Shown: piece after piece, positions 56 to 30,012 of the stretch | How the letters are laid out: each line of letters starts with the position of its first letter | How positions within the stretch are numbered: position 1 is the first letter of the stretch | Source of the DNA: a virus | Direction: 5' to 3' (one strand) | UHGV virus genome: UHGV-0120925 | DNA length: 30,012 nucleotides | Program-made: the position numbers and the translations under genes | Notes under the pieces: model-generated | What the model was told of the DNA's origin: nothing | Databases searched by the model: none | Seen by the model: the letters and a program-made list of their open reading frames with translations, nothing else

Positions 56-121
56 AATTTATTAGAATTTTGCACTTAAATCAAAAAGTTACTGACAATT
101 CAACCACCAATCAATAAATTA

Positions 122-156
122 AAGGGCACATTAAAGTACACAATATTTGTGCCCTT
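122..156. terminator. Hairpin with perfect 9-bp inverted repeat (AAGGGCACA / TGTGCCCTT) and 17-nt loop, downstream of the invertase gene; possibly bidirectional
   Basis: Stem 122..130 pairs with 148..156; T-rich run follows on the plus strand and an AT-rich run on the minus strand. Loop contains GTACACA, the motif repeated next to int. Confidence 0.4.
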
Positions 157-21909: not shown

Positions 21910-22443
21910 AATCGAAAACTCCTATTAATCATCGGCTGTGGGACCCCAAAAAAAGTTTTCTAACCTGCGGCGATGTGAAGAAAGGCTAGGCGGCGGTCCT
22001 TTTGGCGCCCGGTTACAGGGATTTGACCTCCCCCTCCCCTCCACATCCGTTGATGGTAATCATTATCATTTGAAGCGTTCACGCCCTGTTTTCGAGCGGT
22101 GGCAAGGCCAGCACAGGCTTTCAAGGTTCGAATCATCATCGGTACACGTAAACGTGCTGTATCACCGGGTGCGATCCGGTCGGTGAGAGAGTATCCCCGC
22201 GCGAGAGCGAGAACGGCGTGAGAACGGGCAACACTGGCAGGGAGTTGGCGCTGACCAATACAGGGAATGTTATGGGATGTGGTGAAGGGTTCATGGACGG
22301 GAATATGTCGCACGTAAAGCGGCGAGGCCCGAGGAGCTATTGCCGAAGATAAGTAGGCCGAATCGGGTCGAAATGGGTCTCCCACCTACCACAGCACCAA
22401 AGCATTTCTCCCGCATCAGCGGGTAACTAAGTGGAGAGTAAGT
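21910..22443. promoter_or_regulatory. Non-coding divergent control region between the late (minus) and early-left (plus) operons; likely holds promoters and the packaging site
   Basis: About 530 bp with no RBS-supported ORF. GC-rich, with short direct repeats (GAGAACGG twice at 22207..22226). Exact promoter and cos/pac positions cannot be fixed from sequence alone. Confidence 0.4.
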
Positions 22444-22632: not shown

Positions 22633-22665
22633 CCGCATCAGCGGGTAACGACAGAGGGTAAGGGG

Positions 22666-24030: not shown

Positions 24031-26937
24031 ATGGAATTCTTTAATGTGGTTAAAGCCACTCAGAAATCCGGAAAGCAAGATGCAGTGGTCTGGTTCACTG
24101 CTAAAACCGAGGCTCGCGCCAATCTGATGCTGGATGTTGCGCTGGAAGATGCAGGTATCGAAACAGGTCGGGGTAAGGACTACGCCAAACCGATTCGCAC
24201 TGATTTCCCAGTTGTCGACGGCCTGCCGAAAGAAGGTGAAGTTGATTTTACCTGGTGTGATCGCTACGAGCTTCATGACGATGGGCGCACCTGGCTGCCA
24301 AAAGTCACAGCTGAAAACTCTGACGAGAAAACGGCTCAGACCGTTGATAGTCACATAACTACTGAGTCAACGCTGTCAGAAACCGCTGGCATCACGCTGG
24401 ACGAACACGACGACGACTCAACCCTCTACCCGGTAGTGCAGATGCCGTTTCGTAAGCAACTGCTTTCCCAGTTCACCGCCGACGAACTGCGCCACCACGT
24501 AACCCATGAAGAGTACGAAGCTATCGGCGCGCTGGAGATGGACACTGATAACAGTTACGTCCAGAACTTGCTGTTAGCTGCTGAGAACTGCCCGGAAGTG
24601 AAGGGTTACGACACCAAAGACCTGTGGCGTTACACCGATGCCATTCGCAAAGTGTTCAGCCAGGACAAGCGTCACGAACTCGCGCTGGTACTCCGTTTCA
24701 CCAGAATGTGGGCGGCGACTGATTACATTGACCGTGGCATCCTGGCGCGTGAATGGGCCGCCGGTAATCGCATCAGTAGTGTGCAGCGTACTGATTCCGG
24801 CACTAATGCCGACGGCGGTTACGTCACTGACCGTGGACCTGAGGCACACCACACACTGGACACTCTCGATTTAGAGATTGCGTGTGCCCTTCTGCCTATG
24901 GACTTCAACCACTTCGAGATCCCGGGCAGCATTCTTCGTCGCGCTAAAGAAATCGTGACCAAAAAAGAAGAACCATGGAAATCATGGAGCAACATCCTGC
25001 GCAATCAGCCAGGCGTTCTGGGTGTTAACCGCACGGCTATTTTTAACCTGGTACGTATCGCACCGGAAAATATTCATTTAACTCCTGTCGCTCACCTGGA
25101 ATTTGTTAACCAGACCATGACAGCCGCGTTCAATTCCGCGGTCGAGTTATTGCCGTTGCATGAAGCTGAACCCGCAGCACAGGAAATTCCCCAACCTGAA
25201 GGTAAGGAGTCTCCGCGCAAATCCTTCTGCACTCACGAAGAGAACCTGCAACGCGTGCGTGAAGAAGGAGCACGCCGCCGCGCAGAGGAAGCGGCAGCAC
25301 AACCGCAGAAAGTCGAACAAGAACTGGTTAAAAATGTCGGCAACGGAATATTCGACGTTACGGCTTTGCTGCAGAACTCAGCAACTCATGGCACGAAAAA
25401 GGCTACGGAGACCACCAGCAATGTGCAGGTTCAAGAAACTGTCAGTGATGAAAAACAAGCTGGTGATGAAGTACAGCCAGGCGAAAGCAGTCTGGAGTCT
25501 GGTGAAGAGTCAGATACCAGCCAGAAGGACGATGTAGACCAGAATACGGATTCTGTCGCCAAAAATAGCGATTCTGTAAGCCAAACCGAACCAGTTGCAA
25601 CACAAACCGAGCCAGAAGCGCAATCTGACGAACCAGCTGTTGTTTATCCCGCTTATTTCGAGCCAGGCCGCTATGAAGGGCTGCCAAACGAGGTTTACCA
25701 CGCCGCCAACGGCATCAGCTCAACCCAGGTGAAAGATGCGCGCGTTTCGCTGATGTACTTCAATGCGCGCCACGTAGAGAAAACCATCGTCAAAGAGCGC
25801 TCAGCGGTGCTGGACATGGGCAACTTGGTGCATGCGCTGGCGTTGCAGCCTGAACTACTGGACGCAGAATTCAGCGTTGAACCGGTGATCCCTGAAGGCG
25901 CATTCACAACGGCCGCGACCCTGCGCGCCTTTATCGATGAGCACAATGCCAGCCTGCCGGCGCTGCTGTCTGCCGACGACATCAAGGTGTTACTGGAAGA
26001 GTACAACGCCACCCTGCCGCCGCAGGTTCCGCTTGGCGCTAACCTGGAAGAAACGGCACAGAACTATATGGCGCTGCCAGCTGACTTCCAGCGTATTGAT
26101 GGTGACCAGAAGCAGACGGCGACGGCAATGAAGGCATGCATTAAAGAGTACAACGCCACCCTGCCGCCGCCGGTTAAAACCAGCGGCAGCCGTGACGCGC
26201 TGCTGGAGCAGTTGGCAATCATCAACCCTGACCTTGTGGCTCAGGAAGCACAGAAACCGGCACCACTGAAAGTGTCCGGTACCAAAGCAGACATGATCCA
26301 GGCCGTGAAGGCAGTCAAACCAGATGCCGTATTTGCCGACGAACTGCTGGATGCCTGGCGCGATAACCCGGAAGGAAAAGTGCTGGTCACCCGCCAGCAG
26401 CTGAGCACCGCGCTGAATATTCAAAAAGCGCTTCTGGCACACCCGACCGCCGGCATGCTGCTGACCCACCCTAGCCGAGCCGTTGAGGTGAGCTACTTTG
26501 GTTTTGACGAGGAGACGGGCTTGGAAGTTCGTGTGCGCCCTGACCTTGAGATCGACCTGGATGGCGTGCGTATAGGTGCAGACCTGAAAACCATCAGCAT
26601 GTGGAATGTTAAGCAGGAAAGCCTGCGCGCCAGGCTACACCGGGAAATTATTGAACGTGATTATCACCTGAGCGCGGCTATGTACTGCGAAACCGCAGCG
26701 CTGGATCAGTTCTTCTGGATTTTCGTCAACAAAGACGAGAACTACCACTGGATCGCCATCATCGAGGCATCCGCTGAACTACTGGAGCTGGGTATGCTCG
26801 AGTACCGCAAAGCGATGCGCAATATCGCAACCGGATTCGACACAGGTGAATGGCCAGCGCCAATCACTGCTGACTACACCGACGAACTGAACGACTTCGA
26901 CCTGCGCCGCCTTGAAGCGCTGCGTACTCAGGCATAA
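24031..26937 (+). CDS. recE: RecE-like exonuclease VIII (C-terminal PD-(D/E)XK nuclease domain) with long N-terminal extension
   Basis: 968 aa immediately upstream of recT. C-terminal region ...YFEPGRYEGLPNEVYHAANGISSTQ...DLEIDLDGVRIGADLKT... is consistent with a RecE/YqaJ-type nuclease. Central acidic low-complexity stretch. Confidence 0.8.
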   Translation: MEFFNVVKATQKSGKQDAVVWFTAKTEARANLMLDVALEDAGIETGRGKDYAKPIRTDFPVVDGLPKEGEVDFTWCDRYELHDDGRTWLPKVTAENSDEKTAQTVDSHITTESTLSETAGITLDEHDDDSTLYPVVQMPFRKQLLSQFTADELRHHVTHEEYEAIGALEMDTDNSYVQNLLLAAENCPEVKGYDTKDLWRYTDAIRKVFSQDKRHELALVLRFTRMWAATDYIDRGILAREWAAGNRISSVQRTDSGTNADGGYVTDRGPEAHHTLDTLDLEIACALLPMDFNHFEIPGSILRRAKEIVTKKEEPWKSWSNILRNQPGVLGVNRTAIFNLVRIAPENIHLTPVAHLEFVNQTMTAAFNSAVELLPLHEAEPAAQEIPQPEGKESPRKSFCTHEENLQRVREEGARRRAEEAAAQPQKVEQELVKNVGNGIFDVTALLQNSATHGTKKATETTSNVQVQETVSDEKQAGDEVQPGESSLESGEESDTSQKDDVDQNTDSVAKNSDSVSQTEPVATQTEPEAQSDEPAVVYPAYFEPGRYEGLPNEVYHAANGISSTQVKDARVSLMYFNARHVEKTIVKERSAVLDMGNLVHALALQPELLDAEFSVEPVIPEGAFTTAATLRAFIDEHNASLPALLSADDIKVLLEEYNATLPPQVPLGANLEETAQNYMALPADFQRIDGDQKQTATAMKACIKEYNATLPPPVKTSGSRDALLEQLAIINPDLVAQEAQKPAPLKVSGTKADMIQAVKAVKPDAVFADELLDAWRDNPEGKVLVTRQQLSTALNIQKALLAHPTAGMLLTHPSRAVEVSYFGFDEETGLEVRVRPDLEIDLDGVRIGADLKTISMWNVKQESLRARLHREIIERDYHLSAAMYCETAALDQFFWIFVNKDENYHWIAIIEASAELLELGMLEYRKAMRNIATGFDTGEWPAPITADYTDELNDFDLRRLEALRTQA

Positions 26938-26942
26938 GGGGA

Positions 26943-28061
26943 ATGATGATGGAAAACACGAATATCGTAACCGCTGAACAGCAGACTCCAAACACGATCT
27001 CAGCCAGCAATGCCATTTTCAACGTGCAGGCTTTAACCCAGCTTCAGTCTGTCGCCGGGTTGATGGCACAGGCAGCCGTAACGGTGCCTGAGCACCTCCG
27101 CGGCAATCCGGCAGACTGCATGGCCATCATCATGCAGGCGATGCAGTGGGGTATGAACCCTTACGCCGTGGCGCAAAAGACGCACCTGGTTAACGGTGTC
27201 CTGGGATACGAAGCGCAACTGGTTAATGCGGTGATCTCCAGCTCAAACGCCATCGTTGGCCGCTTTCACTATGAGTACGAGGGCGACTGGTCGAAATGTG
27301 CCAGCAGCCGCGAGATAACCGTTAAAAAGCCTGCGAAAGGTGGCGGGACGTACGACAAGAAAGAAATGGTACGCGGTTGGGAAAGTGCTGATGAACAAGG
27401 ACTGTCGGTACGGGTAGGTGCCGTTATTCGCGGTGAAAGTGATATCACCTGGGGAGAGCCTGTTTTACTCTCCAGCGTAATCACACGTAATTCTCCACTT
27501 TGGGTATCAAACCCGAAACAGCAGATCGCTTATCTGGCACTCAAATACTGGGCGCGCCTATATTGCCCTGCAGTTGTTCTTGGTGTGTACACCCCTGATG
27601 AGATTGAACAGCGCACAGAAAAAGAGATCAACCCAACGCCGCAACGCGTTAGCCTGGCTGATATCTCAGGTGACACCGTCACAACCACGCAAAGCGCACA
27701 GGAATCGTCGGTAAATGTCGACTCTCTTGCCGATGATTTCCGCGAACGCATCGAATCTGCTCAGGACGTGGATAGCACCAAATCGCTGCGTGCCGACATT
27801 GAAACGGCGAAAGCTACGCTGGGATCCGCACTATTCACCGAGCTGAAAAACAAAGCCGTAAAGCGTTATTACCTAGTGGATGCACGCAACAAGGTTGAGG
27901 AGGCTATTAAATCCCTGCCCCAGCCCGACGAGCCGCATGCAGCCGAACGGTTCGCTGAAGCCGAGCGCATGCTTACATCTTCAAAGCGTCACTTAGGCGA
28001 TGAACTGCACGATCAATTCAGCATCACCCTGGCGGATATGAAACCGGAATACGTGGCCTGA
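26943..28061 (+). CDS. recT: RecT single-strand annealing recombinase
   Basis: RBS AAGGGG. Region ...CMAIIMQAMQWGMNPYAVAQKTHLVNGVLGYEAQ... matches the RecT family. Paired with the upstream RecE-like gene. Confidence 0.9.
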   Translation: MMMENTNIVTAEQQTPNTISASNAIFNVQALTQLQSVAGLMAQAAVTVPEHLRGNPADCMAIIMQAMQWGMNPYAVAQKTHLVNGVLGYEAQLVNAVISSSNAIVGRFHYEYEGDWSKCASSREITVKKPAKGGGTYDKKEMVRGWESADEQGLSVRVGAVIRGESDITWGEPVLLSSVITRNSPLWVSNPKQQIAYLALKYWARLYCPAVVLGVYTPDEIEQRTEKEINPTPQRVSLADISGDTVTTTQSAQESSVNVDSLADDFRERIESAQDVDSTKSLRADIETAKATLGSALFTELKNKAVKRYYLVDARNKVEEAIKSLPQPDEPHAAERFAEAERMLTSSKRHLGDELHDQFSITLADMKPEYVA

Positions 28062-28383: not shown

Positions 28384-28581
28384 ATGGATGATATTTTGGT
28401 AACGTCAGACCTGACCAGTCGCTACAAAATTTCACGCAAAACCCTTTGGTCATGGCAAAGTGCAGACACAATGCCTCGGGGCTTCGTATGCCCGTTCCCA
28501 CCCCCTGACTGGCCCGGCAACCCTAACCGCTGGCGCTCTGAGTCAATCAAAGAGTGGGAGGATAAAAAGAAGATAAATTAA
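28384..28581 (+). CDS. xis: Excisionase / AlpA-like DNA-binding protein
   Basis: Start at ATG 28384 with RBS GGAGAG; the track ORF from 28339 begins with TTG. Pattern ...[12 protein letters not shown]...PRGFVCPFP... fits the AlpA/Xis winged-helix family. Converges on the int 3' end. Confidence 0.6.
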
Positions 28582-29771
28582 CTGAAGGGCTCTCCGATGA
28601 TCTCTTCAAGATGGCTCTGCCAAACGCGGAGCCAGTGTTTCTGATCATCGATATAGTCATGAAGGTTGTAATGCGCCATAACCCCCACCATCTGATGCCC
28701 GAGCAGCTTTTCAATTACGTGCGGCGGGCAACCTAACTCAGAGAGATTTGTGGCTATCGTCCGCCTCATATCATGAAGCGACCACTCTGCCATACCTGTT
28801 CCATTCCAAATAGAACGGGCGTAATTGGATGCCACAGGTGAATGAACGGGCGAATCTTTGATCCCGCCATCAATTTTACGTTGTGAAGTCACCAGGTGAT
28901 TGGTGTTTATTTTCTTGAGGTGATTTCTGACCAGGTTAACGGCGGCGTCTGAGAGTCCCCTTCTAATATGTACCCGAGTTTTATAACTGCCCGCAGGCAC
29001 GACCCACTCATTATCATCCAATCGAAACCATGATCTCTCACTAAGTCGAATCTCAGCCGTACGGCATCCGGTAAGCATAATAAATTTCACCAGGAAAACG
29101 GACTCTATCGACATATGGCTTTTCAACCACTGATAGATTTTGCGCAGATCGTCATCGTCCATCCTGCGAGTTCTCTTTTTAGGCTTTTGCCCGACATCAG
29201 ATGGCAGTAATCCCTCGAGTGGGTTTGAGGCGATCACACTTCTGTTAACGCAGAACCTAAACGCCCGTTTGCACAGCGAAAGCATGTAATGAGCCATCAC
29301 CCTGCTTTCTATAGAATCGAAGACGTTGATCCAGTGCATTTTCGCTGTGTTATCGACTTTGACATTCTTCATCGGTTCGGCGATATGTTTCTCAAACACC
29401 TGGCGATAGTAATCGACTTTAACTAGCCCGTTAGCGATACAGTGCCTTTCAATCCAGTAATTGAACGCTTCGGCAACGGACATCGCTTCCTGTCGGGTCT
29501 GCTTATCCAGCTTCACCTGCTCTCGCGGATCCAGTCCCTCAGTTAACCAGTTTCTGAATTGTTGGCGACGCTCTCTTGCCTGGGTGATACTCATTGCAGG
29601 ATAATCACCAACATTGAGTTTTACCGCTTTACCGGCCCAGCGATACCGATAGAAAAATGATATTTTTCCGGCCTGGCTGATTCTGGCGTTGAGCCCGTGC
29701 GAATCAGAAATAATCTCGATATCATCTCTTTTCTTGCCGAGCGCCTTCCTGAGCTTTGTGTCGGTGATCAT
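28578..29771 (-). CDS. int: Tyrosine site-specific integrase
   Basis: C-terminal catalytic region with R...HDMRRT...H...Y residues ([30 protein letters not shown]). Start set at ATG 29771 ([10 protein letters not shown]), typical of P4-type integrase N-termini; upstream in-frame codons run through the GTACACA repeats and are probably untranslated. Confidence 0.88.
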
Positions 29772-29776
29772 TGAAT

Positions 29777-29817
29777 GGGTACACATTTTTGTTTTTGGGT
29801 ACACAAAAGTGTACACA
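29777..29817. repeat. Three direct repeats of G(G/T)GTACACA just upstream of the integrase start; candidate arm-type or operator sites
   Basis: GGGTACACA at 29777..29785 and 29797..29805, GTGTACACA at 29809..29817 (contains the palindrome GTGTACAC). A single GTACACA also sits in the left-end hairpin loop at 136..142. Confidence 0.4.
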
Positions 29818-29957
29818 AAGTTGCCCACTCAAAGCTACACGCAATGTAACACTAGTTCGCAGAGTGTTATGGTTTACATCCTTGAAAGCCTGCTGGATAA
29901 GGGTTTAGCGTAACAGAACGTTTTTACGCGGAATTGTTCGTAATATGCCAAATGACA

Positions 29958-29974
29958 ATTTAAGAAAGTGTTCT
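29958..29974. repeat. Right copy of the 17-bp perfect direct repeat; candidate att core
   Basis: Identical to 39..55. Located 130 bp beyond the integrase start. Confidence 0.4.
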
Positions 29975-30012
29975 GAATAGAGATTCAATATTTAAGGGCA
30001 CGGTTTTTGCAA

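Follow-up and report, generated by a model that had tools for sequence, protein, structure and literature searches.

The DNA analysed here, a stretch of 30,012 nucleotides (the window), carries an exact 17-bp direct repeat at both ends, indicating that the whole of it represents one prophage with both att junctions; the element runs from 39 to 29974 and measures only ~29.9 kb. The host target is yciI, as for phi80; in thousands of E. coli genomes this gene matches the final 55-58 bases of the window. A tRNA scan was negative, the insertion target being yciI and no tRNA gene. The segment 28560-29978 is 99.9% identical to the int-xis-attP region of phi80 (JX871397, NC_021190 and X04051) and to that of HK225, mEp237 and mEpX1. 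Int, xis, the intergenic region and the core are the same DNA (99.9%) in the two elements, and insertion at yciI is common to both, whereas the remainder of the prophage is not phi80 and its structural genes are HK97/mEpX1-like. The features that define the element and its recombination genes are as follows.

39-55, no strand assigned: att core at the far junction, the exact 17-mer ATTTAAGAAAGTGTTCT
28384-28581, plus strand: xis, excisionase of 65 aa (PHROG 1553 excisionase, E=7e-34)
28578-29771, minus strand: int, tyrosine integrase of 397 aa with PF13356 and PF00589, most likely start ATG 29771
29958-29974, no strand assigned: att core at the int-side junction, ATTTAAGAAAGTGTTCT, an exact 17-bp direct repeat with 39-55

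The phi80 records JX871397 and X04051 annotate int, xis, the 17-bp attP core, one IHF site and a 'possible promoter pI', and arm-type sites are annotated in neither. The attP core of JX871397 corresponds to 29955-29971 of the window, an offset of 3 nt from the exact repeat, and at positions 36-38 the two junctions differ (ACC vs ACA). The genes xis and int are convergent, with 3' ends that overlap by 4 bp (28578-28581); the same convergent arrangement is seen in the phages Pm34 and SEN34, and a putative leftward terminator is annotated within the 3' end of int in JX871397. In E. coli MSB1_9D (NZ_LR890349.1), the same int gene is interrupted by an IS903B insertion and its halves are annotated apart, one of them as 'Arm DNA-binding domain-containing protein'.

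Elsewhere in the element, the minus strand up to 21909 carries pin and the tail, head and terminase genes, and beyond 21909 small unknown ORFs are followed by the genes for a RecE-like 968-aa exonuclease (24031-26937) and RecT (26943-28061) and then by xis and int. No lysis, Q, replication or immunity modules were seen in the prophage, which looks like a deleted, defective lambdoid element. Among the small unknown ORFs, a 17-nt exact direct repeat, CCGCATCAGCGGGTAAC, occurs at 22411-22427 and 22633-22649, 222 bp apart. Within the RecE-like gene (25937-26175), a 32-nt repeat is present three times with 75-97% identity and spacings of 60 and 147 bp, which suggests an internally repeated protein segment.

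Repeats on both arms of the attachment site

The 186 bp between the int start (29771) and the core (29958) contain no other gene. The first-pass annotation had described three copies of GTACACA in this interval, between the start codon of int (ATG 29771, minus strand) and the att core (29958-29974), at spacings of 20 and 12 bp. Both the position and the spacings are correct; the copies are exact and lie at 29779-29785, 29799-29805 and 29811-29817 on the plus strand, the spacings being counted from start to start. The repeat unit is longer than the heptamer, reading GGGTACACA, GGGTACACA and GTGTACACA on the plus strand, while the int strand shows TGTGTAC with CC, CC or AC after it. The P arm has the following features.

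29777-29785, minus strand: proximal P-arm site, TGTGTACCC on the int strand, 20 bp from the middle copy
29797-29805, minus strand: middle P-arm site, TGTGTACCC on the int strand, 12 bp from the distal copy
29809-29817, minus strand: distal P-arm site, TGTGTACAC on the int strand and GTGTACACA on the plus strand, holding the palindrome GTGTACAC
29907-29957, minus strand: conserved block beside the core, near-invariant in relatives with 79-90% Int identity, with 29861-29906 variable

Heptamers are short and the region is A+T-rich, so that the repeats might be a chance cluster or a by-product of local composition or coding. The counts speak against such an origin. GTACACA occurs nine times in the window against 2.4 expected, a number that none of 100 shuffles reached, and the three copies form the only non-overlapping triple of any (non-trivial) 7-mer within 45 bp in the 30-kb window. 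When 30 kb were simulated 300 times with a first-order Markov model, only 3% of the runs produced a cluster of this kind, whatever the 7-mer.

One copy had also been described as forming a palindrome. An 8-bp palindrome, GTGTACAC, does exist at 29809-29816, but relatives have TGTGTACTC, TGTGTACAT or TGTGTACCA at this position, and the lack of conservation indicates that the symmetry is incidental. A functional role of the palindrome as a dimer site or cruciform was accordingly rejected, because relatives vary in the two bases needed for its symmetry.

When attP is rebuilt by joining the ends of the window, its order is int, the three repeats, 140 bp, the core, 68 bp and a second set of sites on the P' arm. 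This set, which the first-pass annotation had missed, consists of a fourth exact GTACACA (136-142) and a degenerate GGGCACA (124-130) on the opposite att arm. The features of the P' arm are listed in order from the core.

79-91, plus strand: IHF consensus site AATCAAAAAGTTA, a perfect match, given as an IHF protein_bind feature in JX871397
109-121, plus strand: second IHF consensus site AATCAATAAATTA, a perfect match that directly adjoins the P' pair and has no annotation in the phi80 records
124-130, minus strand: P'-arm site 2, degenerate, TGTGCCC on the int strand, 12 bp from site 1 on its core side
136-142, minus strand: P'-arm site 1, TGTGTAC on the int strand and GTACACA on the plus strand, oriented as the P-arm copies

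Read on the int strand, the P' pair is TGTGTACTTTAA TGTGCCCTTTAA, a 10/12 direct repeat, and the same TGTGTAC-N5-TGTGCCC pair is found as the P-arm pair of two relatives with 60% Int identity (L265 and L266 below). The two IHF sites are the only perfect matches to WATCAANNNNTTR in the 30-kb window and both lie between the core (39-55) and the P' pair; in the P arm there is no IHF match with ≤1 mismatch. The core, ATTTAAGAAAGTGTTCT, bears no resemblance to the arm motif. A motif that is present on both arms and unlike the core, with IHF sites in between, is the classical anatomy of arm-type integrase sites.

The P' GTACACA is also enclosed by an inverted repeat, GGGCACA (124-130) and TGTGCCC (148-154), which is followed by a T-rich run on the minus strand; the 124-154 structure looks like a weak terminator for pin. 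As a functional unit of the attachment site the inverted repeat was rejected, being absent as such from the Klebsiella phage Kp4864-1, whereas the direct pair is conserved there.

The repeat layout in related elements

In relatives with 79-90% Int identity (Citrobacter and Kluyvera prophages and IMG/VR contigs) the whole P arm can be aligned, and it contains the near-invariant block TTTGTGTACAC TTTTG(T/C)GTAC(C/T)C ... AAATGTGTAC(C/T)(C/T), in which the middle copy is spaced from the proximal one by 19 and not 20. The repeat block remains near-invariant across 72-90% Int identity (Citrobacter, Kluyvera and Klebsiella), whereas the 8-9 nt immediately upstream of it vary; in the 79-90% group, a more distant stretch of 45 bp is equally free to vary. 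Conservation of the repeats where their flanks are not conserved is difficult to reconcile with a chance cluster. In Kp4864-1 (77% Int identity) all three P-arm copies are kept, and the much-diverged P' arm retains TGTGTAC-N5-TGTGTCC; P' site 1 is thus conserved in spite of its diverged flanks and site 2 reads TGTGTCC.

In addition to 29907-29957, the 79-90% relatives share a second near-invariant P-arm block at 29840-29853, and the DNA between the two blocks varies. On the int strand, 29840-29853 reads AGTGTTACATTGCG and 29907-29957 reads TGTCATT...AAAAACGTTCTGTTACGCT. These blocks are candidate Xis, IHF/host-factor or activator sites. The first of them contains TTGC just upstream of the annotated -35 of int, an arrangement that recalls cII-activated promoters.

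The layout of the repeats is kept from 90% down to 32% Int identity, and the flanking DNA of the deeper relatives cannot be aligned. On the int side it consists of a pair spaced by 12 bp, to which a third copy that abuts the int start is usually added, as in the following elements (int strand, upstream of int).

L265 and L266, 60-61% Int identity: TGTGTACTCTTT TGTGCC(C/T) ... AGTGTAC
L273 and L274, 54% Int identity: TGTGTACATAGG TGCGTAC
Klebsiella ST11-VIM1phi8.2 and related loci, 52% Int identity: TGTGTACACTGA TGTGTAT ... GGTGTAC
Stx2a-converting phage LC727874, 52% Int identity: TGTGTACACTAA AGTGTAT ... GGTGTAC

Members of the 52% group have a TTG start that is directly abutted by the last copy, and some of the Klebsiella elements adjoin sapC instead of yciI. 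The arm-binding domain of these integrases is 70-74% identical to that of phi80, compared with 46-47% for the remaining protein, which fits the retention of the same arm motif together with a different chromosomal target. At about 34% Int identity, Proteus phage Pm34 has three int-side copies, 12 and 19 bp apart and the last against the ATG, and a second 12-bp pair ~230 bp upstream of them; Salmonella phage Oslo, also at about 34%, has one pair on each side. In whole phage genomes the far 12-bp pair lies ~200-250 bp upstream, across the putative core, and the sequence CATGTGATCTTGCGTATAAG, which Oslo and Pm34 have in common between both sets of sites, is presumably the core. In each of these two phages, TGTTTCA also occurs three times in the P arm (L207 460-520 and L208 464-534), with the putative core on one side and the TGTGTAC sites on the other; there the TGTTTCA copies may be bound by an RDF or a host factor.

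The individual copies differ in how strictly they are kept. The distal site is invariant as TGTGTAC in all relatives that use TGTGTAC, from 90% to 34% Int identity. The 12-bp pairing of the middle site with the distal one is preserved in every relative, while its sequence drifts to TGCGTAC, TGTGTAT or TGTGCCC. The proximal copy adjoins the start codon in most relatives, at a spacing of 19-23 bp, and is absent in Oslo, vB_KppS-Ant and L273/L274.

Two lineages have changed the motif. SEN34 and Klebsiella phage P12620-1 have GAGTACA or AAGTACA in all five sites (three int-side, two far-side), and vB_KppS-Ant has TGTATAAACA in both of its 12-bp pairs. A motif that is switched in all copies together is expected of a recognition sequence evolving with its binding protein. 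The P' arm was examined in six elements, namely the contiguous attP of Oslo, Pm34, SEN34, P12620-1 and vB_KppS-Ant, all with equivalent far pairs, and that of Kp4864-1, joined across the ends of its record; a second pair is present on the far side of the core in every attP that could be read as a whole. An IMG/VR search with the core 17-mer of the relatives returned int-side junctions only and no far (P') junctions, and the far end of LC727874 has neither a 12-mer in common with the int-side flank nor a motif pair.

These comparisons also bear on a second interpretation, in which the repeats are sites of the excisionase Xis, an AlpA-type recombination directionality factor (RDF), that serve to bend the arm in excision and possibly to repress int. 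In lambda, P2, HP1 and KplE1, the RDF is known to act on a single arm, whereas phi80 and the five other contiguous attP have pairs of the motif on both; the motif thus does not have the form of tandem direct repeats confined to one attP arm. According to PMC7498355, an RDF typically binds short direct repeats that follow one another at about one helical turn, a description with which the 12-bp pairs agree. Homologues of Xis co-occur with the motif in Pm34 and SEN34; the Xis proteins of these two phages turned out to be homologous (AlpA-like) when relatives with an unrelated Xis were sought, so that co-conservation alone does not separate Int sites from Xis sites. In KplE1, intS is repressed by the RDF TorI, which binds to the arm next to int (PMC2951348), but the copies that lie against the int start occupy the place where KplE1 has IntS sites and not TorI sites, and the other conserved blocks (29907-29957 and 29840-29853) are free for Xis. 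On balance, it is improbable that the repeats are Xis sites.

The integrase start and the putative int promoter

The integrase of the window is 100% identical to phi80 Int. Its residues 2-87 match PF13356, Arm-DNA-bind_3 (formerly DUF4102), with E=1.4e-18 and 67 bits against a cutoff of 27, and the catalytic domain PF00589 lies C-terminal to this arm-binding domain. The domain type marks the IntSXT subgroup of arm-binding tyrosine recombinases, which includes the P4 and Sf6 integrases (PMC8138268).

Alternative in-frame starts of int exist at ATG 29786, which the proximal site overlaps, and at GTG 29828. The longest ORF, 28578-29828, encodes 416 aa (the form in X04051) and reads from GTG 29828 through all three repeats, while the proximal site ends 5 nt before ATG 29771. 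TGTGTAC is without a stop codon in any sense frame, which helps to keep the frame of the extension open. In relatives, a 1-nt indel between the middle and proximal copies shifts this frame; relatives with 52-61% Int identity have no protein similarity upstream of M-(I/L)-T-D-T-K; the Pfam match begins at residue 2; and the start codon position of the 397-aa form is conserved as ATG or TTG. For these reasons the extension is considered non-coding. The first-pass annotation, which had called the N-terminal extension spurious and attributed it to the repeats, was therefore right for the part beyond ATG 29786, while the form with five more codons from ATG 29786 (402 aa, the start used in JX871397) is in frame in all phi80-like elements and may be used in them. 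Although the 416-aa ORF formally covers the repeats, a frame that is broken by an indel in relatives does not account for them as a by-product of coding, and the comparative data effectively refute a chance or compositional origin.

Because int is directed away from the core, the 186 bp that form the P arm must also contain the int promoter. In JX871397 the -10 of the 'possible' pI, TACACT (29808-29813), falls inside the distal repeat; the -35 annotated for pI, GTGTAG, is poor and the spacer measures 21 nt, and a scan of 29600-30012 for sigma-70 promoter and terminator consensus sequences found nothing. In the 52% relatives and in Pm34, the proximal repeat is placed between a Shine-Dalgarno-like element (GAGG, GGGG or AGGG) and the start codon.

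An annotated -10 within the distal copy and a proximal copy between the Shine-Dalgarno position and the start codon in relatives are what would be expected if the repeats were purely a transcriptional or translational operator of int for some other phage or host regulator, with no role in recombination. Such an operator, however, has no need of a second pair ~230 bp away, on the far side of the core and beside the IHF sites, and the motif follows the integrase lineage across phages whose DNA is otherwise unrelated. A purely regulatory function is therefore very unlikely, even more so than the assignment of the repeats to Xis. A regulatory role in addition to arm binding is another matter. The P-arm sites stay linked to int in the prophage, and they span the 5' untranslated region as far as the start codon and the putative -10, so that bound Int would probably repress its own gene. 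The operator reading is plausible, the 'possible promoter' note in GenBank being the sole source of the promoter assignment.

Known systems and the proposed role of the repeats

The two arms of lambda attP carry five short arm-type repeats (P1, P2 and P'1-P'3) that are unlike the core, and IHF sites separate arm-type repeats from core. The phi80 attP resembles it in these respects. It differs in the motif, TGTGTAC, and in the distribution of the repeats, 3+2 in phi80 vs 2+3 in lambda. In addition, the arm-binding domain of phi80 Int is of the DUF4102/PF13356 type, and phi80 int is transcribed away from attP from its own promoter and not through xis. The arm-type sites of lambda are bound by the N-terminal domain of the integrase (PMC2951348).

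A closer parallel for the int side is offered by KplE1 (CPS-53), whose IntS is 24% identical to phi80 Int (E=6e-15). There, the arm-type sites lie within ~50 bp of the intS ATG and over the -10, and it has been shown experimentally that IntS represses PintS, as does IntS together with the RDF TorI (PMC2951348). The two systems share the family of the arm domain, an int promoter inside an att arm, sites at the ATG and the -10 (a putative one in phi80), and separate transcription of int and the RDF gene. They differ in that the KplE1 motif is GGGTAAAA, in direct and inverted copies, and the KplE1 target is a tRNA gene; moreover, binding and repression are experimental in KplE1, whereas the phi80 sites are predicted from sequence. 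P4 Int, an integrase of the same broad family, likewise controls its own gene, binding near the transcription start and repressing it (Piazzolla et al. 2006, as summarised in PMC2951348), the difference being that the P4 protein Vis is proposed to act on mRNA. Negative control of int by Int is also reported for the PAI I536 integrase (PMC2951348, PMC7286903). Given the same arrangement in KplE1 and the control of int by Int in P4 and PAI I536, autoregulation of phi80 int is likely, and by analogy with KplE1 IntS and P4 Int the repeats probably serve also as its operator.

Taken together, the proposal in the first-pass annotation that the repeats are arm-type integrase sites is strongly supported by a motif on both arms, by the arm-binding domain of the integrase, by a layout that is kept to ~32% Int identity and by two concerted switches of the motif. 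On this comparative evidence, the three repeats are very probably the P-arm arm-type sites of phi80 Int, with 136-142 and 124-130 as the P' set. The operator function that had been proposed as the alternative fits the evidence as well, and the two functions are not mutually exclusive.

On the lambda Int paradigm, from which the mechanism is taken, the N-terminal arm-binding domain of Int would bind the TGTGTAC sites while the C-terminal domains would bind the core ~70-140 bp away. Bends made by IHF at 79-91 and 109-121 would bring arm and core together in an intasome, which would carry out integration and, with Xis, excision. For phi80 Int/Xis, excision has been obtained with att fragments of which one extends from the int ATG outward and the other from inside pin outward (PMC2532685). 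The primers of that study map to 29767-29791 (P2) and 352-376 (P3). As the first fragment starts at the int ATG, it contains all three P-arm repeats, and the two fragments together hold all five sites. Functional att fragments of this extent are consistent with the assignment of the repeats as arm-type sites.

The kind of element described here is textbook and the locus is classical; arm-type sites and the autoregulation of int through a promoter embedded in an arm are both established. TGTGTAC is named as the phi80 arm motif in no annotation or accessible paper that was found, the original att papers (Leong et al. 1985, 1986) lying outside the search, and no Int binding, footprint or mutational data for these phi80 sites were found in the searchable literature. 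At the level of the motif, the clade-wide attP plan appears undescribed in the searchable literature.

The observations can be combined into one broader and tentative picture, to which we give somewhat less than an even chance, of a clade-wide attP plan in which sites have a dual role and a fixed arm module is joined to a changing target. The DUF4102-type integrases of phi80 and of the Stx2a-converting, Klebsiella, Proteus and Salmonella phages may form the clade, and their attP may be built on TGTGTAC-like 12-bp pairs, one on each arm, and a third copy that abuts the start codon of int. The same sites may act as the arm sites of the intasome and as a -10/5'-UTR operator that limits the synthesis of Int. 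In evolution, the arm-binding domain and its motif may have remained fixed while the core-binding part changed the chromosomal target.

The conservation of this layout across a broad integrase clade is of modest interest in itself. CRIM plasmids and the Dual-In/Out method make everyday use of phi80 Int and attP, and knowledge of the probable docking sites of Int may help in trimming and engineering att sites. The role of the repeats would also explain the weak expression of int from its native upstream region. Knowledge of these sites may also help to predict cross-reactivity between related integrases; the 52%-identical integrases of the Stx2a and Klebsiella phages keep the same arm motif. 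For this clade as a whole, the signature of 12-bp pairs would provide a simple means of delimiting the att arms and of choosing the correct start of int.
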